Below are positions 896 through 55,057 of a stretch of 64,000 bases of DNA, in pieces. Under the pieces are notes generated by a model. The model ran no database searches, had not been told where the DNA came from, and saw nothing but the letters and a program-made list of their open reading frames with translations. How positions within the stretch are numbered: the stretch's first letter is position 1; each line of letters starts with the position of its first letter. Both the position numbers and the translations under genes were made by a program. Source of the DNA: Hormiphora californensis (Eukaryota > Animalia > Ctenophora); NCBI GenBank assembly GCA_020137815.1, contig CM035352.1, forward strand, positions 1 through 64,000, written 5' to 3'.

Positions 896-936
896 TTTCA
901 AACTTTTCAACACTACTTTAAACAAATTAATTTGAG
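896..936 (+). other. Spliced-leader-like 41-mer at the LINE 5' end
   Basis: TTTCAAACTTTTCAACACTACTTTAAACAAATTAATTTGAG; exact reverse-complement copy at 33799-33839; matches my recollection of the ctenophore (Pleurobrachia) SL exon; followed by TTTCAG, not a GT donor. Confidence 0.75.
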
Positions 937-973
937 TTTCAGCCAAATGTCTGCCTGACCACCCCGGAAGACG

Positions 974-5151: not shown

Positions 5152-5310
5152 GAGTGGCTGAGAGGTGATACGTGTTTAATTTATTTAGGTGGACCCACTA
5201 AGGGAAGGCCTGTTGTGTACACTAAAACTTTTATTGTAAACTTGTAAACTTGTAAACTTGTAATGAAATTGTGATATTTGACAGAAAAAAAAGATTGATA
5301 TAAACTAACT

Positions 5311-10357: not shown

Positions 10358-10631
10358 GGTTGGTTTAGGATTTTAGACATACAGTCCGGGTTGGGGGATT
10401 TGGCGCCAAAATGTACTAGAGGACTCTATATCTAAAAAGTCTACACAGTGCGGACTCTATATCTAAAAAGTCTACACTGGGCGGACTCTTTATCTAAATT
10501 TTTTTCAAAGTCTAACTGTAGATAAAGAGTCCGCTTTTAGAGATAGATTCTGCCTTGAATTTAGATAAAGAGTCCGTTAGCACTAGAGTCCGCCCACCTC
10601 AACATTTCTAACTCAGTCTCTCTCTTTTTCT

Positions 10632-10739
<108 letters not shown>

Positions 10740-11587
10740 GATCTCTCCCCTTCCTTCTCGCCCTTGCATCAATCATTGAATATGTCCTAAACGTGTTAAA
10801 CATAACGGTATGATAGACGATGTGGTAATGGATGCTTCAGCATGTATATTTACAAATACGTTGGACGTTGGTCGAATGGAATATATAGGTTACAGCCGAG
10901 TGGTCCACGGTTCGAATCACATTGATCACAAAAACTGTGACATGCTATGGTATCGCAAAATTTCACGAAAAGTAGGTTACACTTTTATAGACGTTTTTAA
11001 TATATTTTGGTTCAATACATTTCACTTCAGAACCGTTTACTAGCGATTTAGACTCCAAGCGTCCTGGACGCTCGGGCCCTTTAAAACTGTGTGTATAGCG
11101 CGCACCTCCCAATGCTTACAACACCCTACTTCGCTAGGCGCCGTGCGTCTTGAACGCTCTCGGTCAATCATCCCACATCCGAGTTGATATTTCAAAAAAG
11201 AGTTGCTTGCGGAGTAAAAACTTCACGCGCGCGAGACTAAAAATTCAGCGGAGAAATCGAAAATTATCCGCGCGCGACCAAAAATGCATCTGATGATTTT
11301 TTCTTATCTCTTTTCCCGAAAAAAAAAATCTGTGCGTTCATGAACGCACAGACGCACGGTCAGCTCCGCCTCTGGAAGTCACCTCCGATAATCAAGTCGA
11401 GACCGCACCATGAGGCCAGGTCTCCAAGGGCCCCGGGCAACGGTTCACCAGATGCCCAGTAAACACAACATACCACCAGTTTGTCAGTTTGTCAGTTTGT
11501 CTCTCTTCACCACGACCATGTCTGCGGAACTGAATTGAGGTATTTGCCTTAAGCCCGATCCTTTTGTGATGACGGTTGATCTTATTC

Positions 11588-12167
11588 GGTGGGCGGACTC
11601 TAGTGCTACACTCTAAGTCTACAGTGGACTCTATATCTAAATTTAGATTTAGATAAAGAGTCCAAATAAGTCTAAACTCTAGGAGGACTCTATCTCTAAA
11701 AAGTCTAAACAGGGCGGACTCTTTATCTAAAAAGTCTACAAAGAGCGGACTCTATATCTACATAAATCTAAATTAGACATAGAGTCCGCCATTCTCAGCG
11801 AACTCGAGATTTCGGCCGTTAGGCCGGAAACGAGAGTTTGCTGTACCTCTATACTAATTGAGAAGTGTTAGGGCCATTATTTGGGTTCGAGGTTAGGGTT
11901 AGGGTTATGGTTAGGGTTAGGTTTTGGGTTGGTTTAGGAATTTAGACATAGAGTCCGGGTTGGGGGATTTGGCGCCAAAACGTACCAGGGGACTCTATGT
12001 CTAAAAAGTCTACACAGGGCGGACTCTATATCTAAAAAGTCTAAACTGGGCGGACTCTTTATCTAAACTTTTTTCAAAGTCTAACTGTAGATAAAGAGTC
12101 CGGTTTTAGATATAGAGTCCGCCTTGAGTTTAGATAAAGAGTCCGTTAGCACTAGAGTCCGCCCACC
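11588..12167. mobile_element. GGTGGGCGGACTCTAG-TIR MITE (copy 2, intact, 580 bp)
   Basis: Perfect 9-bp TSD ATCTTATTC (11579-11587 / 12168-12176); internal GGACTCTATATCTAAA repeats and a TTAGGG-like run. Confidence 0.92.
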
Positions 12168-12272
12168 ATCTTATTCTGCCCCCGTTGGATCCAACATGGC
12201 TAGTGAGGGCGCCGAACCCGTCCGCTTTCAGTCCCTGACCTTTTATAGGTGGTTCTGTAACCAGGGCAATAT

Positions 12273-13315
12273 GGGTACCGGACAGAAACTCGAACGGACG
12301 ATAACTCGAACTCGAACTCGAAAATTTCGGACTATAACTCACTTTTGAAAATGTCGAATTTAGGTGAGTTATAGTCCGGATCAGGTGACTTTCTGTCCGC
12401 CCCACTGTTTAGCACTATTTACGGTGAGTTAGAGTCCGGGCGGACACTAACTCACCTGTTCGAGTTGTGGGGGACAAGGTGAGTTTCTGTCCGCTAAAAA
12501 TGTCGAAATTCGACTTTTTGTCCGCCCTCTAAACTCACAAATTCGGACTACAACTCACTTTTAATAGACAGGGGGAACAAGAGTGACAGGGAAAGGGCGG
12601 GAAAATATGTGAGTTTTGTCCGCTTAAATAGCGAATTTCGATTTTCTGTCCGGACTAGAACTCACTTCATGTACAGAGAGAAAAAGGCGGGAAGACATGG
12701 CGGCGTCGTTGGCAGAGAGAGGGATGCAAAGTTGTAGAGAGAGCCTGACACAGAGAGAGAGGGGAGAAAGGGCGGGCTAGTTCAGTTCTCGTTGTTCACT
12801 CATACATTGGTTGAGCTCGCTTTCTTTGCGTCAAAGCCCCCCGGGTTTAATTCCCATCAGGGGACCGGTCTTTATCCAAGGGTCTCTTTCATAAAGCAGT
12901 GGCTATATTCCTCCCAATCTTTTCCCAACCCAGCCTAGCTGCATGCTGCAGTGCTCTCCACTCGGACCCCCCACCCTTCACTGAAATTTTCACAAAAAAG
13001 AAAAAGATCAGAGGGGGAAGAAGATGGAGAGACAAAGAGAGTGTTTTCACTGCATGGTTTTTTTTCCCCCCCAATCTGTTTTCCCCACCTGCTATAGTAC
13101 CCACCTATCCTCGACAATCTGTCACAGCGAGACCTACTGATTGTGGATCCTTCCTCCTTATCGACACCATACCCACTATGCTACTACGACTCAAGACTTC
13201 TCTCTACTGAGTCCAGTCCGATCCTACAATATGACTCCATCAGCTGTGACTCCTCATCATCTTCTCTGTTAACAGATTTTGGATTTTCTAGCTTCTGAAG
13301 AGCAGCACGGAGAGA

Positions 13316-14468: not shown

Positions 14469-16270
14469 CAGGGTGTCCCACTGTCTTTGCATCACCTGCG
14501 ATTTTGGGTCATGACCGGGCTCCATTAAACGAACCAAAACTGATCGAAAAATTGGTCAAAATGGTTCTAACAAAAAACAGTGTTCTAGAGAATTGTCTGG
14601 CGAACATTTTGGTTGCAAGATTGACTTTCCAAGTCTTACCAATCGTCAGATATATCGTCGTAAAGTCAAAATTACGTGTTCATGAAATCCGACCGGGGTT
14701 CACGTTTTGAAAAATTCACAAGTGCAAAATTGTTCGGATCACATTGAATTCCTCATAAGAGTTGTAGGAAATTGTCTGGCGGTCATTTTGGTACCCGGGT
14801 TTTTATCCTAGCTCAATGTTTAGAATGTCTTGTGAATGTCAGAACTGGAATTTTCCCAAAAGTGGTCTCAGGTATCGCATTGCATTTTGCCCTGTTATGA
14901 AGCTCATAGCTGCTTGAATAACATCTTAGTGTATGATAGGGTTGAGATAGACCACTTGCGTATCCTACACATTAACAGGGGCCTTGCCAAATCGTCATAA
15001 CAACCCTGTCAAGTGTCTAGATGAAATTGAGACGATATGTGCTGATTATCATGGGATTACACACGACACCGAGCCACCTAATTAGGGGTTGTGAGCCGAT
15101 ACCAACTAAGACTCAGCATAGAAAAATCTTCATGTTCCTACAGTCATAACGCAACTTAAACGTAGAGCTATGGAAAAAACCATGGTATCAAGATGAACCT
15201 TAGAAGATTCCAATGAAGCTCTTGTAAATTTCAAATCATTTTACCCATTTGTTGAGGACACGTGATCCCCTCAAAAATGCTGGTTGAATTTCGTCTTTAG
15301 GCTATAAGCATACTGATCGTGATGATCATAATCAGTTAAAAAGATGAAGTGTGCTCATGGTTTTGATCATCATCATCTGCAAAAAACTACAGTGTGCGGA
15401 ACATTATGATCATCACGTAAGAGCTGGCCCTGGAGCCGTCTCTTAAGTTGGATGATGATCATCAACACCTAGTGTGCGCAGGTTTTGATCTTATTCTTGT
15501 GGAGGGCTGCACTGTAGTCATGTGATATGTACCACGTGGTACGACTTCGCGCGCGCGAGAGGCTGTTGTACAGGTCACGTGATATGCAACAGCCTCTCAG
15601 AGCGCGCGACTAGGCAAGGGGGAGCTCCCGGGAGATAGCATCATCATGCTGAGCACACTGGTCATGATGATCATGATCTAAAGGCAAGTTCCAGCAAGTT
15701 GAGCATGGTTTATGATGATCAAACGTGAGCACACTATGGTTCATGATGATCAAACGTGAACACACTATGGTTTGAGAACATCATGATGCATCAAGCCTCC
15801 ATCATGATGATAACCATCAGTGTGTGCGCTCCTTTGATGGTGACCATCAAAACGTCCGCACACTGACCTGATTATGATCATCACGATCAGTATGCTTATA
15901 GCCTAAGACAGTCATAAGACACTCTAAAAATTGAGTTAGGACAAAAACCCGGGTACCAAAATGACCGCAAGACAATTTCCTACAACTCTTATGAGGGATG
16001 CAATGTGATCCGAGCAACTTTGCACTTGTGAATTTTTCAAAACGTGAACCCCGGTCGGATTTCGTTAACACGTAATTTTGACTTTACGACGATATATCTG
16101 ACGATTGGTAAGACTTGGAAAGTCAATCTTGCAACCAACATGTTCGCCAGACAATTCTCTAGAACACTGGTTTTTGTTAGAACCATTTTGACCAATTTTT
16201 CGATCAGTTTTGGTTAGTTTAATGGAGCCCGGTCATGACCCAAAATCGCAGGTGATGCAAAGACACCCTG
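14469..16270. mobile_element. Tc1/mariner-type MITE with ~350-bp TIRs
   Basis: TA|CAGGGTGTC...GACACCCTG|TA; long inverted arms ~14483-14830 vs ~15920-16265. Confidence 0.85.
15300..15903. mobile_element. Nested TIR element (PIF/Harbinger-like) rich in ATGATGATCA motifs
   Basis: GGCTATAAGCATACTGATCGTGATGATCATAATCAG inverted at both ends; TTA/TAA flanks. Confidence 0.55.
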
Positions 16271-16366: not shown

Positions 16367-16620
16367 CAGTCGGACCCCGATTTAGTGGCATCCTCGGGGA
16401 AGAAAATCCTGCCACTAAATCGGGATGCCACTAAATCGGGGTAAATCATATTTGGCGCATAAAAACTTATTATAGTTCTTGTGTTTATTGGACAAGTTAG
16501 ACTCGCTGGATATTATTGGATGAAACCAGATATTTCGGTGTTTAACACCATCATCAGTAGTAGCTAAAAATAGAACATATTAGGAATAGGAATCAAAATC
16601 GAAATTCATATCAAAACAAT
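16367..16620. mobile_element. Truncated pogo-like MITE (CAGTCGGACCCCGATTT family)
   Basis: TA|CAGTCGGACCCCGATTTAGTGGC left end only. Confidence 0.65.
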
Positions 16621-16657
16621 CACGTACTCTCTATCTCTCTCACTCTCACTCTCTATA

Positions 16658-29637: not shown

Positions 29638-29642
29638 TAATA

Positions 29643-30279
29643 CAGGGTGTTCATTTTGGATCTTTACAAGCGTTAGGCTTCACCCAGAAAAAAGTTGACA
29701 AGATTAGGTCATGAAACTTCATACTTGGACTATTCTATACCCTCATTCAAGGTTCCTGGGGTTTTTGGAGCTTTAGGACCCTGGGAAGTGTGTTTTTGGC
29801 ATCAAAACTACCAGAAGGAATTTTTTGCTGGTGCTGAGACTTTGCTTAAATGTTTTTCGGGTATTTTCTATGTCAATCCTAAAGTTTCATAGAGATTGGA
29901 TGTGTTTTTCAGACTCAAAATTTCATAAAAAGTGGCTGGAAAGACTCAATTTTAGCCGTTTTTGAGCTGTTTTCGAGCCTTTCCAGCCACTTTTATCGAA
30001 ATTTTGAGTCCGAAAAACACATCCAATCTCTATGAAACTTTAGGATTGACATAGAAAATACCCAAAAAACATTTTAGCAAAGTCTCAGCACCAGCAAAAA
30101 ATTCCTTCTGGTAGTTTTGATGCCAAAAACACACTTCCCGGGGTGCTAGAGCTCCAAATCCCCCAGGAACCTTGAATGAGGGTATAGAATAGTCCAAGTA
30201 TGAAGTTTCATGACCTAATCTTGTCAACTTTTTTCTAGGTGAAGGCCAACGCTTGTAAAGATCCAAGATGAACACCCAG
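29643..30279. mobile_element. Tc1/mariner-type fold-back MITE (CAGGGTGTTCAT)
   Basis: ~300-bp TIRs, TA flanks; identical inverted copy at 36064-36700. Confidence 0.9.
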
Positions 30280-30479
30280 TACTTATAACGGATTCGTGAT
30301 TGGTTATCCGTGATTACTATAATATATTAGATATTCGCAATTGATATCCGAAATTGGATTTCTGCGATTATTATGAGGCTACCTACGATTGAAAAAGTCC
30401 GTGAATCCCCAATCGTTTAATCGCGTTTATTAAATTCAGCTAGTATTAAAAAATGCATGTCGTAGTATAACAAAATGCT

Positions 30480-31759: not shown

Positions 31760-33656
31760 GCTCTATGAAATGCACAGTTCACGCCAACCGCTCTTATAAA
31801 ATCAAACTCAAATATTCTCATCTCTCTCTAGGTCTCTCTCCCACTATCCAACCAGCGCTTTCTCACTCTTAGTACTCTCTCTAGCTCAAATACTATCTCT
31901 CTCCAAATCTCTCAGAGTCTAAATTTCTCCACTTTTAATATTTCACTCTGTCTCTGAACTCCTCCTCGCGCGACTCTCAGACTGAAAGTTAATTAATGTT
32001 GCCACACTAACTGGCTTTTTACCGTTTTTTTGCTCATTGAAGCGAAATAACGGCTAAACGGTTGGAGATAGAGCTTAAAAGTCTGACGTCGACCCCCCCC
32101 CCCCCATAACTTGGCCATTGCCTACAAAATGGCAGCAGTGAAATGTCTCTAAACCATTCCTAAGTGGCTATAGCCATATAGCCAAAATACGGTTAAGCAC
32201 ATATCTAATTATCCAATTATCTAATTAACCAGATGAGATAGAGGCGTAATTCCAGCACCTAACCCCACTAATGCGAGGACGCTACACACTCTAGTGCCCT
32301 TGATTCCCCTGCTCGTCTCCTAAGTTGGTTTTTGGGTTTTCGTGCCAGGCTGAAATACATGTGAAAAGGGCGTGGCCCGGAAACCCAACTTCCACACATC
32401 AGAAAGTGCGACAAACTTAGGAGGACATTCTGGGGACCTATCTGAGCATCCTAGAAGTGGAAATATAAACTTGAAAATTAGTTCCCAAAACTGCCGTTTT
32501 TTTGCTCTATTTTCCTGGTCTACAGGGATTCATGGTATAAGACTACGATCAATCTGCTAATAGTGTGAAGCAATATATGCCTAATCGAGATGAATCTAGC
32601 CGAGATCCCTGCTGCATGGCTTGTAAACAGGGTATCGGAAGTGGAGGGTTCCGTACAGTTGTAACACTAGTTGGCAGAAACGAGATGCAGCAGATGTGGT
32701 CCTAACCCTTCTAATTGACATGTACCGGTGACAGTGCACACCAGGACTACTACCCATCGCTCTCGTTACCATGTGTTGGCCAGTTTAGGATCAGTTACCC
32801 CCAACCCACCCTTTATATAACAGTTGTTTAATCGCACTGTATGGGGGAGCCGGGAGAACTGTGTTAAAGACCTGTATGGAGCCTACTGAACAGCACATGA
32901 GAAGGTTGTATCGACCCTGTTAGAATGCAATGTTTGTTTCTACTAGATCCAAAAACCAAACACGTTTGGTGGATACTGGACAGTGCGAATTTTGTATATC
33001 AAGAATTCTTTTTGGACAGTTTATCATTATTATATGTCAGTTATTTTCTTCAGTTTTTCCCACGATATGTGTGCCGTTGTATGTCAGTTATATTCCATTA
33101 TGGTATTGATAGAGTAAATTTTTCCCTAGCTTTGTATCCCGCTCTTATTGTCTTTCAGTGGCAGCAGTTATCTTTTGATCTGCTGCCCCTGGAGGTTATG
33201 GGCGGACTATAACGCCCACTGCGCATTTTTTGGAGAAATAACACCCACGCGGTAGCGGGCTGATATGACTGCATTAGAGATTAACACAACAAGGGGCGGG
33301 GAATGGCGACAAGAGAGAGAGACAAGGGAGATATTGGTAATCTGTATCTCTATCTATTTAATTAGCACCCAATAGTTCGATTGTGTGTGTGTGAGTGTCT
33401 AGACATGGCTGGAGTTGAAAAGGGAACATATTTGAAGGACTGACATGAGTTGTGTTGCGTCTCTCTCTCTGTGTAATTATTTGTTGTTGAACTGTGAAAC
33501 TTTGATGATGTGAATAGTTTGTGAAGTTGAGTTGAAAAACTTGAAAGGGGATTAGTGTTGTTCTCTCCTTGCTTGCAGTGGGCGTTAGGGCGCGCACAGA
33601 CTGTTCATGCGTGATCATGTCCATAAGTGGGCAAGATTTTGATTTCCTGTTATGTA

Positions 33657-33944
33657 ATAGACAGTTGGGTGATCGGATAACTGTTTATTAGCCTCATGTT
33701 TGATATTCAGAGTTTTTGTTATTCTCTCTGTGGCTGAACAAATGAATCAGACGGGTATAATGACGCTACCAGTTTCGAGGATCTACCTCTTCATCGGGCT
33801 CAAATTAATTTGTTTAAAGTAGTGTTGAAAAGTTTGAAACTCTTTTGAGCCCGATGAAGAGGTAGATCCTCGAAACTGGTAGCGTCATTATACCCGTCTG
33901 ATTCATTTGTTCAGCCACAGAGAGAATAACAAAAACTCTGAATA
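33657..33944 (-). mobile_element. Short snap-back retroposon (Penelope-like, non-autonomous) with SL-like loop
   Basis: 11-bp TSD CCTGTTATGTA (33646-33656 / 33945-33955); perfect 101-bp arms 33704-33804 / 33844-33944; SL-like sequence at 33799-33843; 47-nt unpaired tail. Confidence 0.85.
33846..33887 (+). ncRNA. Hammerhead-ribozyme-like motif (PLE minimal type, U4C core variant); mirrored on the minus strand in the left arm
   Basis: CCGATGA-A-GAGG(TAGAT)CCTC-GAAA-C-TG-GTA-GCGTCA. Confidence 0.5.
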
Positions 33945-34039
33945 CCTGTTATGTATACATAGGGTGCACTTTACATAATGCTTCTCTCTCAAATCAGTGT
34001 AGTTAGTATCTCCAAAATCCAAGTGAACTTTTACAGGGA

Positions 34040-36061: not shown

Positions 36062-36063
36062 TA

Positions 36064-36700
36064 CTGGGTGTTCATCTTGGATCTTTACAAGCGTTGGCCT
36101 TCACCTAGAAAAAAGTTGACAAGATTAGGTCATGAAACTTCATACTTGGACTATTCTATACCCTCATTCAAGGTTCCTGGGGGATTTGGAGCTCTAGCAC
36201 CCCGGGAAGTGTGTTTTTGGCATCAAAACTACCAGAAGGAATTTTTTGCTGGTGCTGAGACTTTGCTAAAATGTTTTTTGGGTATTTTCTATGTCAATCC
36301 TAAAGTTTCATAGAGATTGGATGTGTTTTTCGGACTCAAAATTTCGATAAAAGTGGCTGGAAAGGCTCGAAAACAGCTCAAAAACGGCTAAAATTGAGTC
36401 TTTCCAGCCACTTTTTATGAAATTTTGAGTCTGAAAAACACATCCAATCTCTATGAAACTTTAGGATTGACATAGAAAATACCCGAAAAACATTTAAGCA
36501 AAGTCTCAGCACCAGCAAAAAATTCCTTCTGGTAGTTTTGATGCCAAAAACACACTTCCCAGGGTCCTAAAGCTCCAAAAACCCCAGGAACCTTGAATGA
36601 GGGTATAGAATAGTCCAAGTATGAAGTTTCATGACCTAATCTTGTCAACTTTTTTCTGGGTGAAGCCTAACGCTTGTAAAGATCCAAAATGAACACCCTG
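36064..36700. mobile_element. Tc1/mariner-type fold-back MITE (copy in the right arm)
   Basis: Inverted copy of 29643-30279. Confidence 0.9.
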
Positions 36701-38231
36701 TATTATAAGCTATCGCGATTAGCTATCGCGATTAGCCATCTGCGAATATGCTATCTGCGATTGGTTACTATTATATTACTTATTCCGCGATAAGTTATCG
36801 GTACTACCCGCATCCTCCATATCCTTAAATCGATAGTGTTTACGCAGTGAATACAGAGTGAATACGCAGTGAATACAGAGCGAATGCAGAGTGAATGCAG
36901 AGTGAATGCAGAGTGAATGCAGAGCGAATGCAGAGCGAATGCAGAGTGAATGCAGAGTGAATGCAGAGTGGTTCCAGAGTGAATACGCAGTGAATGCAGA
37001 GTGAATACGCAGTGAATACGCAATCATTGGGGATATCCTACCAGAACTGTTTACGCAGTGAATACAGGGTGAATACGCAGTGAATACAGAGTGAATGCAG
37101 AGCGAATGCAGAGCGAATGCAGAGCGAATACGCAATCATTGGTAATATCCTACCAGAACTGTTTACGCAGTGAATACAGGGTGAATACGCAGTGAATACA
37201 GAGTGAATGCAGAGCGAATGCAGAGCGAATGCAGAGCGAATGCAGAGCGAATACGCAATCATTGGTAATATCCTACCAGAACTAGAATGCCGTAAATACG
37301 CAGTGATAGGAAGGAAAAAATTGGCTATGTTGGCTAAATACAAGAAAAAAAGGTGGTGTTATCTCGCTAGAGAGAGAGACGAGAGCGAGAGAGAGAGAGC
37401 AGAGATAGAGAGAGAGGAGGGGAGAGAGAGAGCGAGCGAGACGAGAGAGGCGCGGGCTGCGAGAGAGAGAAGAGAGACGCGAGAGCGCGAGAGAAGCGAG
37501 CGCGAGCGCGAGAGAGCGAGGGGCGCCGCACGCGCGCGAGCGCGCAGCGCGTCCGCGCGCGCGCGCGAGCGCGCGCGGCGCGCGAGCGGCGAGCGGGAGC
37601 GGAGGCGGGAGGCGCGCGAGCGAGAGAGGAGGAGAGAGAGAGAAGCGAGCGCGGAGCGCGAGCGCAAGCGGGAGCCGCGGAGCGCGAGCGAGAGAGCGAG
37701 AGCGAGGAGAGCGCGAGGCGCGCGCGCGAGCGGAGCGCGAGGCGCGAGCGCGAGAGCGCGAGGCGCAGCGCAAGCGCGGAGCGCGAGCGCTAGCGAGAGA
37801 CGCGAGCGAGAGCGCGAGCGCGGAGCGGAGCGAGAGCGAGACGCGAGCGCGAGCGCGAGCTCGAGCGCGAGCGCTAGCGCGAGCGAGAGCGAGAGCGCGA
37901 GCGAGAGACGCAAGCGCGAGCGAGAGAGCGAGAGAGAGCGAGAGAGCGAGAGAAGAGCGAGAGCGAGGAGAGAGCGGAGAGGGAGAGAGAGAGAGAGAGA
38001 GCGAGCGAGAGAGAGAGAAGGAGAGAGAGAGAGAGAGAGAGAGAAGAGATGAGAGAAAGAGAGCATTAGAGAGAGAGCTAAAAGACGAGAGCGAGAGAAG
38101 AGCGAGAGAGAAGGGCGCGATAGAGATCTATAGTCGCGCGCAGATAGTAGAGAGGAGAAGAGAGACGAGCGCGAGCTCGATAGAGCAGAGAGAGACGAGA
38201 GAGATAGTCTATCCTCTCTATCTAAGAATCT

Positions 38232-40643: not shown

Positions 40644-41564
40644 TCACCATGTCCTGTAATATAGGAGGCCAGGCAAGAACTCAGAAAATAGACGGCTCAT
40701 ATCATGTACAGTAGTGACTCCTTTGCTCTTCAGCCAGGCGTATTCAGTAATATCCAGTTGTAAGGTCCTCTCAGAGCGATTTCCTCCAACCCGCAAACGT
40801 GTATGATTCTTTAGGTGGGTCCAGAGTCCCTCAATGGCGTTGGTGTGCGCTCCAGTAGTAGGGCACACAAAGTTTGTGGAATGGTTCACGGTATGATGTG
40901 TGTATCCGTGCTGGTTGAGGTTTCTGTATGCGGCCCAGCAGTCAGAGATGATTATTGAACCAGGACGGATGTAGCTTTTGATGATGGGAAGTAGGGTTGC
41001 CTCGTCTCTCTTGTTTCCTGGGCAGATCACGAAAAATGCTTCTCCTGTCTCTTGGTCGACACCTCCAAAGACCCAGTGTCCATCCACAATTCGGCCTCGG
41101 CTGTACTTTTGGTGTCCATGCTTGCTCTCGTCAATTTGAACAATCTTCCCAGGTCCTCCGATCATCCCAGCAGTAGAGGTCATCTCATCGTGCATCTTCT
41201 CCCGTATCTTGCAGTAGAATCTGTAGACGGTGCCCTCATCTAGAGAAAGTATGATGCCAGTGGCAGCAGCTGATGTTCTCAGGGTGTACTGGTTCAGGAG
41301 GCCGATAAACTTGCTGAAGGGCATCGGACTTCGTTCGAGGATGCTGTGTTTCCGTACAGACACAGTAAGTCCACAAGTGGTGCACTTCCAACTGAAGCCA
41401 TCACTGTATATGGTGGTAGAACAGGGTGTTATCCTCATCAGGACCAGGCAGTTGTTGCATTGGCAGTGGGTAGGAAGGATCTTCTTTCTCAGGAGGTAGT
41501 CAAAGCAGTCGTACTCCGAGGAGAGGACACCGGCGAGAACAAGGTCAGAGTAAGATACATGCAT
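40644..41564 (-). CDS. Merlin / IS1595 (ISXO2-like) DDE transposase, 306 aa from the first ATG
   Basis: Zn ribbon CNNC...WKCTTC; IGGPGKIVQIDESK, WVFGG, LLPII...PGSIIISDCWAAY, HHTVNHS..FV.P.TGAHTNAIEGLW. Confidence 0.95.
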   Translation of the reverse strand: MHVSYSDLVLAGVLSSEYDCFDYLLRKKILPTHCQCNNCLVLMRITPCSTTIYSDGFSWKCTTCGLTVSVRKHSILERSPMPFSKFIGLLNQYTLRTSAAATGIILSLDEGTVYRFYCKIREKMHDEMTSTAGMIGGPGKIVQIDESKHGHQKYSRGRIVDGHWVFGGVDQETGEAFFVICPGNKRDEATLLPIIKSYIRPGSIIISDCWAAYRNLNQHGYTHHTVNHSTNFVCPTTGAHTNAIEGLWTHLKNHTRLRVGGNRSERTLQLDITEYAWLKSKGVTTVHDMSRLFSEFLPGLLYYRTW

Positions 41565-41856
41565 GTCCTTGAGGGACACCGAAGCGCTAAATGGAGACAG
41601 GGTCAAATAAAGAGTGAATGCCCTAGGAAGAGTCAGATAGTAACTCAGCTCTGGTAAAAACACATAAAACAAAACAACTAAACTAGCTAAAAAACATACC
41701 CACTAACTAGCCAACTTAATACATAGAGGGAGGGAGAACAGACGAGTACTAGGCGAATAGGTGAAAACAGACAGAAAGAGATAGCCTAGTCCACGTGTGT
41801 TATTATATGGTGCCGACATACTGAAGTTACCCAAGTTACCCCTCACAATAGTTAAC

Positions 41857-41964
41857 AGACAGTTGGGTGATCGGATAACTGTTTATTAGCCTCATGTTTG
41901 ATAGTCAGAGTTTTTGTTATTCTCTCTGTGGCTGCCACAGAGAGAATAACAAAAACTCTGACTA
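41857..41964 (-). mobile_element. Second, 5'-truncated copy of the snap-back retroposon
   Basis: 12-bp TSD ACAATAGTTAAC (41845-41856 / 41965-41976); 31-bp arms 41902-41932 / 41934-41964; same tail as the 33657 copy. Confidence 0.88.
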
Positions 41965-42354
41965 ACAATAGTTAACTTATAATATGGATAATTAAAGACG
42001 GAAAGAAAAATATAGCACAGATTGGCAGCAAAATCGCCCAATATCTACCCTAACGAAGCACTTGCAGCACACTACCAATCACAACACAATGGAGAACCCC
42101 CTGATTTAGAGTTTGACATATTGGCAACTGGACCAGCCAGTCAGACGAAAAGTCACGGAGGCGATCCTAATCAAATCTCTTAAACCTAGCATTAACAAAC
42201 GAGAAGAGGGAGAAAAGATCGAACAATTTATTATCTGATACAGTATCTGATTTCTGATTCCTAGTTTGCGTGTGATGTATATATTGTATAGTTCCTATTT
42301 CGTGTATTTTAGATATTAGACATGTGACCTTATTTTTAGCAGCCTGATGATGTC

Positions 42355-42508: not shown

Positions 42509-44671
42509 TGAGAGAGACAAAACCACTTTTTTTCGGGTTGTAGCAACAATATCCAATTTTTCTATCACTGCGTATTTACGGCATTCTAGTTCTGGTAGGA
42601 TATTACCAATGATTGCGTATTCGCTCTGCATTCGCTCTGCATTCGCTCTGCATTCGCTCTGCATTCGCTCTGCATTCACTCTGTATTCACTGCGTATTCA
42701 CCCTGTATTCACTGCGTAAACAGTTCTGGTAGGATATTACCAATGATTGCGTATTCGCTCTGCATTCGCTCTGCATTCGCTCTGCATTCACTCTGTATTC
42801 ACTGCGTATTCACCCTGTATTCACTGCGTAAACAGTTCTGGTAGGATATCCCCAATGATTGCGTATTCACTGCGTATTCACTCTGCATTCACTGCGTATT
42901 CACTCTGGAACCACTCTGCATTCACTCTGCATTCACTCTGCATTCGCTCTGCATTCACTCTGCATTCACTCTGCATTCGCTCTGCATTCACTCTGCATTC
43001 GCTCTGTATTCACTGCGTATTCACTCTGTATTCACTGCGTAAACACTATCGATTTAAGGATATGGAGGATGCGGGTAGTACCAAGTTATCGTGGTTAGTT
43101 ATCCGCGATTACTAGTATTGATTAGTTATCAGCATTTGATATATTCACGATTGGCGCTCCGCGATTGTTCTATGATTTTGATTATTAGTCACGGATAATA
43201 ATCACGGATAAGCGTTGATAATCAGATATATCTGATACAATCAGGTTTTAGGTGCTAATTCGCTCATTTCTCAGTGATTTTTGAAATCGTCGTATATTTA
43301 AGACAGTCGTAACTCTAGATATGACTACCAATTATAACTGAAAATGCGGCAATAAACCTAATTTTATAAAATAAATCTATTTCAATGTTAATTTAGACTC
43401 TGAATCGCTTCTTTCTAGGTATTTTTTAAATCGTCTTAAATTTAAGACAGTCATAAATCTAGATATGACTACCAATTATACCTGAAAATACAGCAGTTGA
43501 CATACGTTGGCAAAATATATATGATGAAATCATGATTTGTAGTTTAATTTGCTCTTTTCTAGGTTTTTTTTGAAAATCGTCTTAAATCTTAATACAGTCA
43601 GATGCCCGTAAGGGTCCAGTTAGAGATTTTGCGACTGACGTTAGTTACAATGAAGCAGGCCCCTGCTGACACTGCTGACACTGCCGCGCGCGCTACTTTA
43701 CATGCAATTCACATCGAAAACCCTGCTAGTCAACGAAGATTTGGCGCGCACAGGGACTCTCCCAGCTTGCGCCAGTTGCAGACTGGAGGCTGGCGCCAGA
43801 AACTGGAGCCAGCCTCCAATCTGCAACTGGAGCGTAACTGACGAACCGCAACTCAGATTTGCTTGAAATTTTTAACATGTCTTCAAGATGTCAAGGCAAC
43901 ACCGCGTACCAAGCGGCGTATTTGTAGAACGACGGGAAGACCGTCTTAAACGCAAAAGAAAACTTAAGACAGTCATAACTTTTGTTATGACTGTCCGTTT
44001 TCTCTGTCCAAGAGAGAGAGCAAGGGGTTAGGTATGCCCTCTCATTCCGGAAGAGGCTTATTACATCACCTCTCGCTCCTACACCACCACCACTAGCTCA
44101 GTCGGTGGTTCCTCAGCCTATGGTATCCCCTGTGGTGTCCCCTGTGGTGTCTCAGATGACATTTTCGCCTGTACCCCCTATGGTTGATGGATACCAGCCA
44201 GATGTCTCTGGATTTTCTACCGCCGCTCCACAATCGGCACCTAATTCTCCAAGGACTCTACTCCTGGGAACTTCCATGACGAAGTGGGTGAACGAGGACC
44301 TGGATCTGATAAATGTGTCGGTATCGGGTGCGAGGCTATGCAAGCCATTCAGAGATTGGGAGGGAAGTCTTGCAATAGACATGTTGAAAGGCTTTAGAGA
44401 GAGACAACCTGAAGTGGAAGTGAGAAAAGTTATAGTTGCGTTCGGTACGAACGACATCAGGAGGTGGGTTAAATTTGTTAGGTCTCATAGTGGTAAGAAT
44501 GATATTTATAATGCGTATGTAGACCTCGTTAGGGAAATTAGAAACATGTTTGGGAAGACAACTGAAATCGTGCTGGCCACAGTTATTCCACTTAGGCCAG
44601 ACTATGGTTGGACTGCTAGTAATGTTTTCATGTTTAATAGGATTGTAACAAAAGTATCATCAATGCTGAAG

Positions 44672-47652
44672 ATCTAGAGGAGCACGCTACGGAACTGACT
44701 AAAATCCTTATCAACGCATACAAAGAATGCACTCCACTGACCCACATCTCAGCCACCACCAAAGATCCAGTGTGGCTCACGGAGGAAGTCAAGACCGCCA
44801 GGAGGTCCATGATCTCCGCGCTGACAGCAGCTCAGAGCGGTAAAACTCCTCCCTTATGGGAAGAAGCAAAAGAAAAATCAAAAATATACAAAAAACTGAG
44901 AGACCAATCCAAACGCACAGCCTGGCAATCTTGGACAGGCGAAATGGACGCCCTCTCTGACGCTCAAAAAATTGGCCAAGTAATTAAAGATAACCCGGGC
45001 AATAACCTTAGTTGTCTGATCAAGCCAGACGGCTCCCTGACGTGCAGCCCAGCCGAGACCCTGGAACACATGCGGGACTCCCTCTTCGGAGAAGACCATA
45101 GCACACGGCCATCACTTACCCCATTGAAAAATGGATCCAAAGAAGAATGGCCCAGTGAGCATGTCTTCTCCATACCAAGAATAATCAGAGCACTTAAAGA
45201 GTTCAAACCGCTCACAGCGGCAGGACCAGATGAAATCAGACCAATCATGATGCAAAAGGTTGCTCCAGCCTTTGCTACTTACTTCCAAAAGATAGCAATT
45301 GCATCTTTCTCCCTTGGGGTCACTCCTCAGTCATGGCAAGAGGCTGAAGCAATTTACCTCCCAAAGCCAGGAAAGAGTGACTACCGACAACCAAAATCAT
45401 TCCGAACCATTACCCTAGCATCCAACCTCCAGAAGCTTATGGAGAGGCTAGTTCTATGGCACATCGAAGTGGACCAAAAAGTACACAAGAAACTCAACAA
45501 AAACCAGTTCGGATTTAGACGAGGTGCGTCCACTGACACTGCCCTCCACAAAGTCGTCCGAAAAATAGAACACACCCTCATGCACAGAGGAATTGCCATG
45601 GCAACCTTCCTCGACATAGAGGGCGCTTTCGACAACGTGGCCTTCAAAGCCATAGAGAGAGCACTACACAACAAACTAAAAGACAGTAAAACGGCCAATT
45701 GGATTACTTACATGATCTCCAATCGCCGAGTCAAAACCTCACTCTTGGGACACACCCTAGTGTTCGGCCTGACAAAAGGCTGCCCCCAAGGAGGAATCCT
45801 ATCGCCATTCCTTTGGAACCTGGTGATGGACGACCTCCTCAGCCTAAAGAAGGACAAAATTCCTGGTGATCTCCAAGGGTTCGCAGATGATCTCTGCCTT
45901 CTAGCCGCGACAATATCGCCTCCAACGAAAGGCAATGCGGCTGCAGACATCTACCCCCTCAGAGAAGCAACCCAGAAAAGCCTATCCACCATTAGCAAGT
46001 GGTGCAAATCAGTGGGACTCAAGCTCAGCGCTCTCAAATCCCACACAGTAATATTCACCCACCGCCACAACATAAAACTCAGAGAACCCATCAAGGTAAT
46101 GGGTCACGAGATCAAAGCAACCAACCACACCAAATTCCTGGGTGTCACATTGGACTCCAAACTAAATTGGTCGGAACATATTGATACCCAAATAAAGAAA
46201 TGTAAACAAGTCCTATTCCAGTGCAGGAGAGCGGTGGGCCCAACGTGGGGCTTCTCGCCAAAGACCATGCTGTGGATCTACAAATCCATCATACGGCCCA
46301 TGCTCTCCTATGGCGCGCTCGTATGGGCCAATGCCATGCTGACACAGAAAAACAAGATAAACACATCAAGAATCCAAAGACTTGCCCTCCAAGTGGTAAC
46401 TGGAGCAATGTCCAGCACACCAGGGAAGGCGCTTGACATGATTACCCACACCATGCCCATAGTAGACCACCTGAGACAATGCGCCATTAAAACAGCGTAC
46501 ACGCTCAGAGCGGCCAATCAGTGGGAAGGGAGTATAGTGTCGCAGCTACCACAACCAAAAGTATTCACATCCCACGCAAACACAGTGGATGAATGCCTAA
46601 ACCTCCTTCCAGCAGAGTGGGAACATGACCACACCATCCCTCAACTCATCCTCGACCGGGAATACTCCCTGGAGATTCCGGACGCAGAGGACTACAAAGA
46701 AGAGGGAGAGGACGATCACACAATAATAGCTTACACAGACGGTTCCAGAATTGACGGCAACGCCGGCGCGGGCCTCCTAATCCGTGAAAATGGACAAGAG
46801 GCCCACTCGGCCGCTTTCAATCTGGGTGATACCACAACAGTCCCTATGGCCGAAATGATAGCCATCCAAAACACCACCAAACACCTCCTTGGCACAGGAA
46901 CTGCCAATCAAAAAATCCTCATCAATTGCGATAGCCAAGGAACAATCAAAGCACTGGATAGCACCGTATGCAGATCCAAAACCACCCAAAACACCATTTC
47001 CAACCTGAACGCCCTTGCAGTTTTCAACACCGTTAAAATACGGTGGATCCCTGCTCACAAAGGCCACGAAGGGAATGAACTAGCAGACTCCCTCGCTAAA
47101 AAGGGAGCACAAGAGATTGAAAACATCATACGCCCTCCAATCCCGAAGAAAGCCGCCTATGCGGCCCTAAGGGAGAAGACAAAAATGACAACGGCTCCAA
47201 CGGCTCACATGAATCTTTTCTGGAACCCGAACCACGTCAAACAGCTCCAGCACCTGGACCGAAATCACTTGAGAGCGGCAACCCAGCTTCTGACTGGGCA
47301 CAACACACTTAAATACCATTTTCACAAGATGAAACTAGCAAACACTCCAACCTGCCGCCTATGCGGCATAGAAAATGAAACAGCCAAACACCTCCTCACT
47401 GACTGTCCAGCTCTCTGGAAACAGCGACAAGAGAGGTTTGATCGGCTTGGTTTAACCCTCGATGACATCAAGAATGGCTTCCCGATCACCAAGACTGTTT
47501 CATTCTTCATGGATATCCTGAAACAGTTAAACCGGGGGGAAGAGGACTAACAAATCCAAACCCTCAAACCAGGCCGGGGAAAGGAATCTCCATGGTACCA
47601 CCCCTCAATCTCACCTATGGTGGAGACGGCCTAATAGAAGAAGAAGAAGAAG
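44672..47652 (+). mobile_element. 5'-truncated RT-RNase H LINE (R1/LOA-like, I group)
   Basis: (AAG)n tail at ~47635-47652; inserted at GAAG of the host ORF1. Confidence 0.85.
44770..47550 (+). CDS. Reverse transcriptase plus RNase H plus C-terminal CCHC knuckle (APE domain missing)
   Basis: AAGPDEI, KPGKSDY, FRTITL, QFGFRRG, FLDIEGAFD, GCPQGGILSP, FADD; YTDGS, AEMIAI, CDSQ, WIPAHKGHEGNELAD; CRLC...ETAKHLLTDC. Confidence 0.95.
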   Translation: MWLTEEVKTARRSMISALTAAQSGKTPPLWEEAKEKSKIYKKLRDQSKRTAWQSWTGEMDALSDAQKIGQVIKDNPGNNLSCLIKPDGSLTCSPAETLEHMRDSLFGEDHSTRPSLTPLKNGSKEEWPSEHVFSIPRIIRALKEFKPLTAAGPDEIRPIMMQKVAPAFATYFQKIAIASFSLGVTPQSWQEAEAIYLPKPGKSDYRQPKSFRTITLASNLQKLMERLVLWHIEVDQKVHKKLNKNQFGFRRGASTDTALHKVVRKIEHTLMHRGIAMATFLDIEGAFDNVAFKAIERALHNKLKDSKTANWITYMISNRRVKTSLLGHTLVFGLTKGCPQGGILSPFLWNLVMDDLLSLKKDKIPGDLQGFADDLCLLAATISPPTKGNAAADIYPLREATQKSLSTISKWCKSVGLKLSALKSHTVIFTHRHNIKLREPIKVMGHEIKATNHTKFLGVTLDSKLNWSEHIDTQIKKCKQVLFQCRRAVGPTWGFSPKTMLWIYKSIIRPMLSYGALVWANAMLTQKNKINTSRIQRLALQVVTGAMSSTPGKALDMITHTMPIVDHLRQCAIKTAYTLRAANQWEGSIVSQLPQPKVFTSHANTVDECLNLLPAEWEHDHTIPQLILDREYSLEIPDAEDYKEEGEDDHTIIAYTDGSRIDGNAGAGLLIRENGQEAHSAAFNLGDTTTVPMAEMIAIQNTTKHLLGTGTANQKILINCDSQGTIKALDSTVCRSKTTQNTISNLNALAVFNTVKIRWIPAHKGHEGNELADSLAKKGAQEIENIIRPPIPKKAAYAALREKTKMTTAPTAHMNLFWNPNHVKQLQHLDRNHLRAATQLLTGHNTLKYHFHKMKLANTPTCRLCGIENETAKHLLTDCPALWKQRQERFDRLGLTLDDIKNGFPITKTVSFFMDILKQLNRGEED

Positions 47653-48568: not shown

Positions 48569-51253
48569 TATGAAGAGTTGATGGAGAATTATATTTATTG
48601 ATTTAATGATAACAATAATATTAATATGGGGATATTTTTGGGCTGTGTTTTACTGATTTTCATTGATCTCATCCCCTGACTCCCAAATCTAACCCTAAAC
48701 TCTAAGCCCATCCCTAAACTCCAATCGTAAACCCGAATAAATGATCAGTGTCGAACAGTACAGAAAAGCTATTGGGGGGTTTGCGGGGGGTTTGGCTGGG
48801 GGGAAAAGGATAAAAATTGACAACACCGACAATAATATTAATAAAAGACAATACAATTGTATTCATTAATGAAACGACAGACATACTTATCTACCATTTC
48901 ACCATATACATTTGTTACACAATACTAATGATAGCTCTTTTAGGATTAATGTTCAGGAGCACCCCTCCAAGTGTCAAGTTCAGGAACGAAGGACAATTTT
49001 GGTTTGATATTAACTTTCCGTATATCTGGTATGCTAATTGTGTACTATTGCTATTCCTAGTCAAAGGTATGAGTTCTAGTAAATATACATATGTATGGTA
49101 TAAAAAACTCAGGCTCGTATGCATTACTATGCTCAAAGTTAGATGCCGATATACTATACTCGTAATGTTTGTTACATCATTAGCGAAAATGCTTCTACTG
49201 AGAAGCCATCCAGATATTATTAATCCAGGGCCTGATAAAACGTTGAAATTAGTGTATTGTAATGTTAACGGTCTTATAAAGATGCACACAATAGGTGGAG
49301 ATCAGCCTGAGTTTCAGGTCTCTAAACTCAGGGATCTAAAAGCATACTTGTTTACCTACTCGCCCGATATTGTTGTTCTAAATGAAACATGGCTGAATAA
49401 ATATATTAGTGAAGGAGAGCTTATATCAGACAAATATTACTCTATATTTCAAAAGGACCGCACTGAGAAGGATATGAAAACTTTTGGTAAAAAAGGAGGA
49501 GGTGTCTTAATACTCTGTAAAAACAATATTGGTGTTGAGACGGAGATAGTTAAAACAAAAACTGATCTACCAATAGTTACTATTCTTCTAAAGCATAAAA
49601 ATACAACCCCGCTTTGTATCTCTACATTTTATAGATATGATTATTCTGGATTAGAACACTTCAAAGAGGCGGAACGTTACTATACCAATCTAGCCAAGAA
49701 GTTTAAGAATCTTACCATTATAGGGGACTTAAACCTAAGTTCGGTAGATAACTGGGACGTCCCAGTGTCAAACAATAGTACTTACGAAAGTTTTATTAAT
49801 CTATTCTCATCTCTGGGCCTAAAATCCTTAGTTAATATACCAACACATAGGGACGGAAATATTCTTGACCTACTACTTACTAACATAGATACTGCCTATA
49901 CTAATGTTTTGCTCGAAGAGAATTGTCTTGTAAAGTCGGACCACCTTACACTAAAATGCGAGATAAAGTTCAAGAAATCACGCCCTAAGTATAAGAATTG
50001 TAAGAAATTTTCCTATAGAAAAGCTGATTGGGACTCTCTAAATAAAGAGCTCTTAGGAATTGACTGGTTAGCACAGTTCAAGGATCTGTCAGCGGAGCAG
50101 TCCCTGCAAATCTTTAAGTCGAGGTTGGACATTGCACTTCGTCACAATGTGCCATTAGTCAATGTAAAAATTGGCTCACAACCACCCTGGTATGATGAAG
50201 AGCTACGCCAACTTAAGAAATCGTTTGATAACTCTAGAAAAACCTTCCTAAAAAATAAAGATAGTATTGTAGCTAAAGAGGAGTACGAACTCAAAGAACA
50301 TCAATATAGAGCACTTGCAATTGAGAAAGAAACATCCTTTCTTGAGCTCTCCTCTATTATAGATGAAGACTCACCAAATGCTAATGTATCTAAGAAATTT
50401 TTTAAACACGTTAAGTCCAAGACAAATAGTACTAGAATTCCTGAGACAGTACATTTTAATAACAATTACAGTTCTGTGAGTCATCGTAAGTGTGAAATGT
50501 TCAATGAATTTTTCTGTAATCAATTCACTGAATCTAGCACTTACCAAGAAACTGTGGATATGGATAGAGATCACACTACTGATTTTAACTTTGAGAAATT
50601 TAGATATGATGAGATCCTAAAAATTCTAAAAAAGTTGGATGTATCAAAAGCAACAGGTCCAGATAATATTGATGGTGTTGTCCTTAAGAAATGTCACAAA
50701 TCCTTAGCTTATCCACTTACTTTTATATTCAATAAATCATATACAGAGGGATGTATACCAACAGAGTGGAAAACTGCGAACGTTGTCCCAGTTCACAAGA
50801 AAGGGGATCGTTCATGCGTTGAGAATTATAGGCCTATATCCCTGACTTGCCTTGTTATGAAAGTGTTTGAGAAATTAGTAAGAGAACGCCTATACAAAGC
50901 TTGTTTAGATAAAATAACTCCCTATCAGCATGGTTTTGTACCCTTTAAGTCATGTACGTCGCAGCTGATTGAATTTAATTGCGAATTAGCGCTTAACATA
51001 AATAACCGATATCAAACAGACATAGTTTACTTTGACTTTCAGAAGGCCTTCGATAGTGTATCACATGACGTAATTATAAGAAAATTAAAAAATGAGTTCA
51101 ATTTAGAAGGTAAGATGTTGCGTTTCCTAATAAATTATTTATCTGGTAGGCAACAAAGGGTTGTGCTAGATGGGGATTTTTCAGAATGGGTAGAGGTCAG
51201 GAGTGGAGTTCCACAAGGCTCAATACTAGGGCCTTTCTTGTTTGTGTTATTTA

Positions 51254-52490
<1,237 letters not shown>

Positions 52491-55057
52491 TAAATGATAT
52501 AGTTAATGTTGTAAGAGATGATGATCTAACTAAAATTAGGCTATATGCAGATGATCTTAAAATATGGCGTGTTATAAATAGTGAAGAAGATAGTTTGCAG
52601 CCCGACATCGATAGTTTAGTGCAATGGGCTAACGATAATAAAATGATATTCCATCCCAACAAGTGTAAGCTGCTTAGATGTACATTAATCGACATCAATT
52701 AAATTATCGCTTAGACAGAAATGAAATTAAATCATGTGAAAAAGAAATTGATCTAGGAGTCTCAACTAACCACAAATTATCGCCAATATAACACCAGAAA
52801 ACTGTTGTTTCCAAAGCTTCTCAAAGATTAGGACTGGTTAAATGTCCACTTAAAAAGAAGAACCTCTACATTAGTCTAGTTAGATCTTTGTTCGAACACT
52901 GTAGCCAAATATGGCGACCAGTAAGTGATTCAAGTCTGCTTAAGTTTGAAAGTTTGCAGAAACGTGCCACAAAATGGATATTAGGTGAAACAGACACTAG
53001 TTATAATTTAGAAACGTATGTAAAGAAACTCAGGGAGATTGGCGTACTCCCAATGACTCAAAAATTTCAATATAATGATCTTAAGTTGTTCCATAAAATA
53101 TTCTATGAAACATCTCCTATAAAATTTCCATCTTTCCTACAAAAATACGATCCGGAATCACATCTCAGACGCACCACCAGACAACAAACGAAACGAGACA
53201 GAACGAACATTATATGCATTGAACAACCCAGAGTGGACCTGTTCAAAAACTGTTACTTCTACCGCTGCCACCTTGAGTGGAATTTACTGCCTCAAGAACT
53301 GAGAAATACAACCGAACACAATTTATTTTCCTCCAAACTGAAAGACCATCTCTGGAACGCCTTACATGACACAACTTAATTCGCCTCTGTGGTGGGGGTC
53401 CCTTTCTCTTCCTTTATTTCTGCGGTATCTCTCCCACCTCCACACAGCTCATTCTTTACATTGTACTCAAATATGAGGTTTGGAGTGGTGTTGAACAGTT
53501 TGAAACAGGACAGGCGCCCCCACCACAGATATGAATTCTATCTGATATAAATCTCTACCAACAGCCGACGGTATACTAAATTTTGGATGGGGATCATGGG
53601 GGAGGGGTGGGGGACTAGGAAAAATGGGCAAGGGTAAGTAATTATTTTTATCATTAATGAGTGAATCAAAATTAACCAACTAGTCTAATGTGAATAGCCT
53701 TATAGCTATTTCTATTTTTATTTAGCTATACTATATTAGTCTGTTTGTCCGTAGTGTGCGAGAACTGTCTGTGTAATCGTAATAGTAATTTGAGGTGTAA
53801 GCGCTCCGTCTATATATTGACACTCCGTCAATAGGAGCCAACCGGGATATTGTCTTTATATATTGTATATCGATTTTTATCCTTTTTCAAATCAAATCAA
53901 ATCAAGCTTTAATACAAGGTACACCACTAGACCTACCGACTCCCAAAGTTTCATGGTGATAGCTTTAAAACTGTGTCCTCTATTAAGTACGCAAAAAAGT
54001 GGTTATTTTACGGTGGTTCGTGACGCGAAAAACGGACATTTTGTCTAAAACACGACCCTCTGTAGCGTAAAAACCGTAACTCCGATTTGCATGAAATTTT
54101 GAACGTGGGCTCTAGGTGTCAAGGCAACACAAACTACCAAGCGGCAAGTTCGTAGGACAACGGGAAGGTTGTCTAAAACAAATTTGAAATTGCCGATTTC
54201 AGACAATAAGTATAGTAGCGCTGTCAAAATTTTCAAAAATTTTCAAAAAATTCAAAAATTTTTTTTTTCGCAATTTCGATTTTCCATTCAATGGAAGCAA
54301 GAATGCTTGGAAAATGGACATTTTTTCCCTGCCCGGGTGAATGCCGAAGGCATTCACCCGGATGCCTTTTTACTTTGTAAAAAGGCATAGCAGGGTTAGA
54401 ATTCGAAAACGACATTTTGGTATACTAACTAATCGGTAGAGGGACCATTTTGGTCACACTTTTGTTGCGAGGGCAACGGTGTAGCAACTAAAGCCGCGCA
54501 CACAGTTACGAGCTGCTCCTTCATAAACCACTTCATTGGCACGTTTTCAGGAAATGTGTGGCGCACAATGTGGCGGCGTGGCGCGCAATTTAGTGCTACT
54601 AAAACACAAGGATTTGCTCTATACTGTTTGTGTGATATAGATGATCGGGATTTTGTGTCCCGCTTGCTGCTACAGCGGATCTAGTCATGATTCCTTTCTT
54701 CATAGATTCACATGGCAGGGAAATTCAGCATTATGTTAGAACATAATGCAAATAATTCTTGTTTAGGGAAATGCTGCGACACTTTTCCAAAATTCTCGCG
54801 AAGAGCGAAATTTTGAAAAAATCAGGTTGTTTCAAAGTTTTTTGAGGTAGGCTCATTGGTGGTTGGTCCTATCAGGTTAAAACCGGTACTACGTGAAAAT
54901 TCAGACAAAACTGTTCGACCTACTCTTCACCGATTTTTGAGATCAGCCCTACTTCCAGAGCTATGGCGATTTCAAAATATTAGGTCGAAAAGACGTTTTT
55001 TTGAGGTCACTTTTTAGATTTCTCTAGTTTCACCTGTACTTGCTCATTTTTCGTCTA

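Follow-up and report, generated by a model that had tools for sequence, protein, structure and literature searches.

We have found a hairpin-shaped insertion carrying the complete host spliced leader (SL) at positions 33646-33955 of the first 64,000 nucleotides of Hormiphora californensis contig CM035352.1 (assembly GCA_020137815.1), a stretch referred to below as the window. We propose, with a probability of roughly 0.72, that the insertion was reverse-transcribed from an RNA whose 5' intron had been replaced by the host SL through trans-splicing. With its putative hammerhead ribozyme core, one-sided tail, inverted arm and target-site duplication (TSD), it probably works like a solo pseudo-long terminal repeat (pLTR) of a Penelope-like element (PLE), and we place it putatively in that group.

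Contigs from seven of 16 sequencing runs (X1, compared twice, X3, X5, X6, X7, X9 and X16) were compared with the window, and only the pieces listed in these comparisons are counted here. X6 carries the label of the window's organism, as does X16, which is taken as RNA by guess; X7 is a marine DNA run and X9 a seawater RNA run.

The body of the insertion comprises 288 bases of hairpin plus tail between two identical 11-bp TSD copies (33646-33656 and 33945-33955, plus strand); the chance of an exact 11-mer repeat at one given place is about 4e-7. Sequence comparison gives the order TSD, a one-sided 47-nt tail (33657-33703, minus strand), a first 101-bp arm (33704-33804, minus strand), a 39-nt loop (33805-33843), an inverted 101-bp arm without a tail (33844-33944, plus strand) and the second TSD. 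The arms are complementary at 101 of 101 positions with no extension outward, and the first of them consists of a pLTR-like body and the last 6 nt of the SL. This is the architecture that the first-pass annotation described, and all of its coordinates were exact when measured again. The insertion is short and encodes no protein. Within the tail, AATAAA lies at 33689-33684, 27 nt before the element end, and an ATG at 33697 opens a frame of 13 codons that runs to the end of the tail and may be an ORF (open reading frame) start or chance. The tail also holds a weak terminal stem-loop that as RNA is no better than shuffles, and the same is true of the fold of the 187-nt RNA made of SL and body (z 0.11). 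In the flanks, the first TSD is preceded on its left by 13 nt that look like the end of the arm; one X1 contig (record 8, depth 409) fits the right flank up to the TSD and then continues with 12 unmatched letters, a possible empty site at 33945; and a separate repeat of very high depth includes a piece at 33585-33643 that stops 2 nt short of the TSD.

On the minus strand, 33843-33799 (45 nt) reads as one A followed by the whole 44-nt Hormiphora leader given in PMC8527503. The leader is thus present in full, although the loop, previously described as the SL itself, holds only its 5' 39 nt; the last 6 nt sit in both arms, and the inverted arm begins with them. The letters after the leader are CCC, beginning at 33798, where an SL RNA gene would need a GT donor and an intron with an Sm site. 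At a true SL RNA gene, a tandem locus found among the metagenome contigs (L022), GTAAG follows the leader directly. An SL RNA gene is therefore ruled out, and the earlier identification of the sequence as a leader outside an SL gene holds. More than half of the transcripts annotated in PMC8527503 start with AG, and RNA contigs of X9 agree with 33812-33843 without a difference, so this copy likely extends to the RNA cap.

The SL junction (33798-33800, minus strand) coincides with a 3' splice acceptor in other copies. Three contigs from three runs leave the window sequence at 33800 and enter, on the element strand, a U-rich tract ending in TAG in place of the SL: record 25 of X9 (107 nt of body matched, 1 difference), record 25 of X7 (82 nt, 1 difference) and record 24 of X6 (about 70 nt with 7 differences and 1 gap, at a depth of 799). 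The tract occurs in two versions, one common to X7 and X9 and another in X6, and the donor end of the intron was not seen in these contigs. Acceptor-type sequence is therefore present at the junction in the DNA-labelled runs X6 and X7 as well as in X9, which matches the PLE trait of keeping an intron end in genomic copies. A 94-nt contig of X3 with a depth of 884 ends exactly at 33800, whereas the junction contigs of that run have depths of 14-35; such a stop is what a branch point would give. Summed contig depth drops across the junction from 2051 to 365 in X3, from 17361 to 2546 in X6 and from 68508 to 47035 in X1, values that were read at the edge of the stretch and are not copy numbers. 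Because other copies carry an acceptor exactly where the SL begins here, trans-splicing onto the element's own intron acceptor likely added the SL, and the first-pass proposal of an SL-trans-spliced source RNA is likely on the same ground.

The leader could instead have been acquired when the reverse transcriptase (RT) left a truncated RNA of the element and continued on SL RNA or on an mRNA bearing the SL, a template switch of the sort known from U6-L1 chimeras. RNAs with an SL cap are plentiful, making up 56% of the Iso-Seq reads in PMC8527503, and SL-headed element RNA was not seen among the listed contigs of X9 and X16. The join, however, falls exactly at the 3' end of the SL exon and exactly at the acceptor AG of the element, and it contains no SL intron letters and no mRNA letters. 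We consider a template switch very improbable.

A putative hammerhead core (33762-33797, minus strand) was scored with a descriptor of our own and a shuffle test. It starts two bases past the SL junction with CCGATGA and one extra base, which follows A9, and continues with a 4-bp helix II closed by G10.1-C11.1, GAAA, a 2-bp helix III and a GUC triplet. Among 20,000 dinucleotide shuffles the descriptor found one match, and the window holds a single further one, at 16557; an exact scan of genome contigs with the hammerhead pattern gave zero matches. Of the features of a pLTR hammerhead, the core, helix II and NUH triplet are present; helix I is weak, and position 4 holds a C. PLE hammerheads share two of its traits, the extra base and the G10.1-C11.1 pair (PMC4209133). 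In Drosophila virilis Penelope the intron's 3' end falls on the 5' strand of helix I in the hammerhead, and spliced and unspliced RNAs give different ribozymes (PMC4209133). Here, the intron letters of X7 and X9 could form five helix I pairs (two of them G-U) behind a C-A mismatch, against only two for the SL. A long helix III that would use a later GUC was rejected as an alternative; common variants at 33767 and 33770 break it, with no partner changes listed. In a separate observation, a T at hammerhead position 4 (33796, element strand, beside the SL) occurs in 25 contigs of X1 and 22 of X5, versus one in the RNA run X16, and is not among the variants in the second contig listing; it may mark an SL-headed family with a canonical core.

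The other descriptor match belongs to a different family. This unit (16440-16625, minus strand) has a canonical CTGATGA core at 16557 with a 4-bp helix I, a U-rich TAG 6 nt upstream of the core and AATAAA downstream, and carries no SL. Judged by its sequence, it has the same layout of acceptor and then core as the 33646 insertion, and it is likely a solo PLE pLTR that retains its intron end. A TSD search found none for this unit, nor for the long interspersed nuclear element (LINE) at 895 discussed below.

Alignment of the insertion against the window by blastn returned one further copy of the family, at 41857-41964 (minus strand; 41845-41976 with its TSD). It has a 12-bp TSD (41845-41856 and 41965-41976), a 45-nt tail and 31-bp arms (41902-41932 and 41934-41964) around a 1-nt loop, and it is truncated before the hammerhead and the SL. 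The base at which its inverted arm ends corresponds to 33704, where that of the first copy also ends (two of two window copies). The two copies differ at one shared position (33706), where both arms of each carry that copy's own base. This shared copy-specific base, together with the SL letters in both arms of the first copy, points to a single template source for both arms of a copy.

Further copies were seen in the sequencing runs. Six joints in X1 and X5 contigs link the left arm to the right arm at differing places, with a seventh joint in the flank, which is the pattern expected of fold-back at variable points. One X1 contig with a depth of 468 holds a junction of the second copy's type (33735 to 33914). 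The points at which contigs pass from the element into mixed flanking sequence are 33658 (X1 with 6, X3 with 7 and X6 with 16 contigs), 33663 (5, 6 and 3 in the same runs) and 33700-33701 (3, 1 and 2), the last belonging to an end cluster that spans 33699-33701. Short copies flanked on both sides also occur, such as record 21 of X5, in which 33658-33730 is matched within 1012 nt. A recurring SL-headed form is hinted at by record 7 of X1, which spans the SL and the right arm with 6 letters missing (depth 351), and by record 23 of X5, a diverged SL-headed piece (depth 14). The exact tail pattern had zero matches in metagenome contigs and in viral contigs, and the exact SL pattern had zero in viral contigs and genome contigs.

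From these comparisons the family is dispersed and 5'-truncated with two clusters of 3' ends, and it does not behave as a miniature inverted-repeat transposable element (MITE). The first-pass annotation had preferred a retroposon to a MITE with fixed ends and TSDs of constant length, and rightly so: TSDs measure 11 and 12 bp, arms 101 and 31 bp, and fold-back points vary. The window is full of long inverted-repeat elements, and the exact fold-back junction of the first copy was not found among the contig pieces listed (most pieces lie outside the listing), so that a DNA MITE, a foldback element or an assembly fold-back artefact might be suspected. A MITE is opposed by the varying TSD length, arm length and fold-back point, by the one-sided tail and by the processed leader. 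An artefact would not create a TSD, and a junction of the second copy's type is present at depth in X1. We regard this whole class of explanation as scarcely credible.

We hypothesize that an intron-retaining member of the family would first be transcribed, and that the spliceosome would attach the SL at the acceptor that lies immediately 5' of the hammerhead. A PLE protein with RT and GIY-YIG endonuclease domains would then bind the RNA at the tail and make staggered nicks 11-12 nt apart. One nicked strand would prime cDNA synthesis at the outer tail boundary, here running to the cap, and the second arm, templated by that RNA or by a sister one that is likewise SL-capped, would end at the inner tail boundary. 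Finally, the two 5'-truncated ends would be joined head to head and the gaps filled. The template could have been either a short RNA terminating at the AATAAA or a long PLE mRNA's 5' end, and both would suit the sequence. A PLE protein has been shown in vitro to cut both strands and extend them, with starts at two sites inside the RNA that delimit the tail (PMC11167929). Since PLE RT starts internally, the template need not have been 187 nt long; the AATAAA would allow that length.

Two routes to the second arm were weighed, and the weighing rests on two hairpin copies. That the other nicked strand served as primer, at a second start site inside the RNA, has slightly better than an even chance, and that a first cDNA snapped back on itself somewhat less than an even one. 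Two-strand priming fits slightly better because it explains both the fixed inner end and the tight join; it requires that both arms derive from one SL-capped RNA or from sister RNAs of that kind. Snap-back requires a primed fold that neither cDNA end forms, a 1-nt loop in the second copy and a fixed stop. The full snap-back account, as the first-pass annotation gave it, holds that a discrete SL-capped RNA of about 187 nt was copied to the cap, whereupon the cDNA folded back and copied itself until it was cut or reached the tail boundary. PLE identity is kept in this account, which differs from ours only in the length of the RNA and the making of the second arm. It draws strength from arms that are identical and share copy-specific variants, from a tail-bearing arm that is longer in two of two copies, from the position of the AATAAA and from PMC8557442, where the tail is ascribed to endonuclease resolution of an intermediate. 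We nevertheless consider it rather unlikely, and three observations tell against its snap-back step: the second copy's 1-nt loop leaves no room for a primed hairpin, folding brings neither cDNA 3' end into the register required, and the inverted arms of the two copies stop at one and the same base. Nor was the discrete RNA of about 187 nt found among the contigs listed in the two RNA-labelled runs, X9 and X16.

The anatomy of the insertion agrees with that of Penelope/Poseidon pLTRs (D. virilis Penelope, Adineta Pen2a_Av and Anolis PAc), which have an inverted 5'-truncated arm beside a direct arm, a one-sided tail, a short variable TSD, a hammerhead within the pLTR (a putative one in the insertion), an intron end at helix I and a possible ORF start near the tail (PMC3846280, PMC4209133, PMC11167929, PMC8557442). 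Adineta Pen2a, for example, combines an inverted pLTR with a TSD of 9 bp and a one-sided tail of 31 bp, and its ORF starts within the pLTR (PMC3846280). A pLTR with an adjacent inverted 5'-truncated copy is seen in both window copies and in the joints of X1 and X5. TSDs of 11 and 12 bp and 5' truncation at different points accord with PLE behaviour, for which TSDs of 8-10 bp are given in PMC3846280, and the one-sided tails of 47 and 45 nt compare with 30-40 bp at one end only (PMC8557442). The PLE-like anatomy proposed in the first pass (inverted pLTR with a short extra tail) is thus found in both window copies. Unlike Penelope/Poseidon elements, the insertion lacks an ORF and has a C at position 4 with a weak helix I, and the host SL replaces the intron, whereas PLEs are known for keeping introns.

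Other known systems share single features with the insertion. Non-LTR retrozymes and other non-autonomous PLE derivatives (bioRxiv 10.64898/2026.07.22.740005) are likewise short and non-coding with a likely PLE origin and a type I hammerhead core, of which the insertion has a candidate, but retrozymes are by definition head-to-tail tandems, whereas the insertion is solo and head-to-head with a TSD, a tail and an SL. The insertion does not fit a non-LTR retrozyme, both window copies being solo and head-to-head with no tandem seen. In dinoflagellate relic-SL retrogenes (PMC3229502), SL-trans-spliced RNAs were also reverse-transcribed into DNA, there from host genes. In Hydra, transposable element RNA receives the host SL (about 30% of transposable element Iso-Seq reads, PMC12220107), and the portion of that paper cited here concerns transcripts without genomic SL-headed copies. 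Neither PLEs nor ctenophores figure in this role in the passages cited from the dinoflagellate and Hydra papers. PLEs exist in ctenophores as Naiads (Naiad_Bfor and Naiad_Mley in the PMC8557442 supplement, the former marked 'HHR_core'), although their displayed 3' ends are dissimilar by eye to the insertion.

Several observations weigh against the PLE-type, trans-spliced origin that we favour. The hammerhead is atypical: position 4 is occupied by C, helix I opens with a C-A mismatch and loop III is not palindromic; its descriptor was written after the core had been seen; the minimum free energy fold gives helix II only and no hammerhead; and an Rfam scan of the window returned nothing at gathering score and no hammerhead family, the nine sub-threshold hits by E-value being microRNA hairpins and two bacterial small RNAs. 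The tail of 45-47 nt is longer than the 30-40 bp of the PLE papers. The listed tail-less ends at 33699-33701 lie a few bases off the 33704 at which the inverted arms stop. Environmental runs supply two of the three acceptor contigs, and each of the three is a lone contig. Among the listed contigs of the RNA-labelled runs X9 and X16, none joins the SL to the body. In X16, 604 records fall on the stretch and cover four of 29 bins, all at the SL plus a few bases, and its lack of body cover is weak evidence; X9 has a single body contig, in the unspliced form.

The autonomous partner suggested earlier, a PLE with RT and GIY-YIG domains, also failed to appear. Neither domain was found in the insertion or in the 103 window frames scanned with Pfam (103 of 134 high-complexity frames, of 240 frames of at least 70 amino acids). 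Peptide searches with two body frames read with X at stops gave no longer protein, which is weak evidence, and seven short motifs (six from the body, one from the SL) were absent from the supplement of PMC8557442 (Craig 2021).

Window frames include LINE RTs and no PLE RT, and LINEs here also start with the SL. The insertion might therefore be a passenger of the abundant APE-type LINEs, in the manner of a short interspersed nuclear element, inverted by L1-style twin priming, and its variable TSDs would suit LINE integration. Its 3' end, however, has neither poly(A) nor a simple repeat, and a blastn comparison of the body with LINE 3' ends in the window and in 34 SL-bearing metagenome loci found no similarity above chance. 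L1 twin priming is not known to duplicate the inverted part, and the hammerhead, the one-sided tail and the intron position are PLE traits. Such an origin is, in our estimation, improbable, and we retain the PLE-type origin.

The SL also heads LINEs. The window LINE at 895 (896-5280, plus strand) has ORF1 at 959-2188, APE-RT at 2071-5148 and a short tandem 3' end, and it carries the last 41 of the 45 SL letters. A scan of metagenome contigs for the SL gave 35 matches in 34 loci, from which the family body and hammerhead cores are absent. Eight of the 34 have at least 17 letters upstream of the SL: the SL gene L022, five LINE 5' ends and two unclassified loci (L016 and L032). Among the five, L007 and L034 have APE and RT by Pfam, L003 and L021 are homologous to the first ORFs of L007 and L034, and L020 is 38% identical to ORF1 of the window LINE. 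Two further loci (L008 and L015) have APE-RT behind the SL with only 5-6 letters upstream. The other 24 loci include 21 with Pfam hits to cellular proteins, as expected of SL-capped mRNAs, and three (L014, L023 and L031) without Pfam hits. The first-pass annotation had two unrelated retroelement classes using the SL as their 5' end. For LINEs this stands, in the window and in other SL-bearing contigs; for the hairpin family it was overstated, since most visible copies end before the junction or run into the intron.

Some additional features of these loci were noted. TTTCAG or TTTTAG stands straight after the SL in the window LINE, L020, L032 and L016. Because this second acceptor-like motif is retained in the DNA, re-splicing at the SL's own AG is suggested. 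L003, L007, L008, L015, L021 and L034 form a second SL-headed LINE group, with ORF1s 32-61% identical to that of L003. L032 (521-1656) and L016 (118-1153) are SL-headed units with one ORF1-like frame, possibly ORF1-only LINE derivatives; L032 enters an Asn-codon repeat soon after the ORF.

More broadly, we tentatively suggest, at less than even odds, that SL trans-splicing has become part of the life cycle of ctenophore retroelements in two unrelated classes. If so, an SL spliced at the helix I acceptor of a PLE would swap the 5' strand of that helix, and the RNA would switch between an intron-bearing, ribozyme-competent form and a capped form, both of which would be retrotransposed. The DNA-encoded SL of a LINE would end in an AG able to take a fresh SL in each cycle, which would fix the 5' end of the LINE without an internal promoter. 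Most of the hundreds of genomic 'SL loci' in ctenophores would then be retroelement heads and not SL genes. Hormiphora and Mnemiopsis have 718 and 491 genomic SL copies, which are not assigned to retroelements in the cited part of PMC8527503; SL-headed LINEs offer an explanation for them, with five of the eight loci with clear flanks being LINE 5' ends and one of the eight an SL gene.

The formation of the inverted repeat and tail of PLEs, and their intron retention, are treated as an open question in PMC8557442 and PMC11167929. An SL head is a natural tag in this respect; it marks the true capped 5' end of the RNA and shows that an RNA processed by the spliceosome served as template. Were hairpin copies sorted by the SL or intron form of each arm, snap-back and two-ended priming could be told apart directly. 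SL-headed PLEs or LINEs in ctenophores were not described in the titles and abstract openings of the literature searched, a search with most subscription journals and Repbase outside its scope.

The window holds further mobile elements. Two hairpins with 307-bp arms and 27-nt spacers lie at 29641-30281 and 36062-36702, and nested foldback or MITE-like elements at 14482-16265 and 10014-12616. Pfam scans identified a hAT-like transposase (5314-7311, minus strand), an ISXO2-like transposase (40647-41702, minus strand), an RT-RNase H frame behind a GDSL-like frame (44641-47547, plus strand) and a second, interrupted APE-RT LINE (48814-53376, plus strand).
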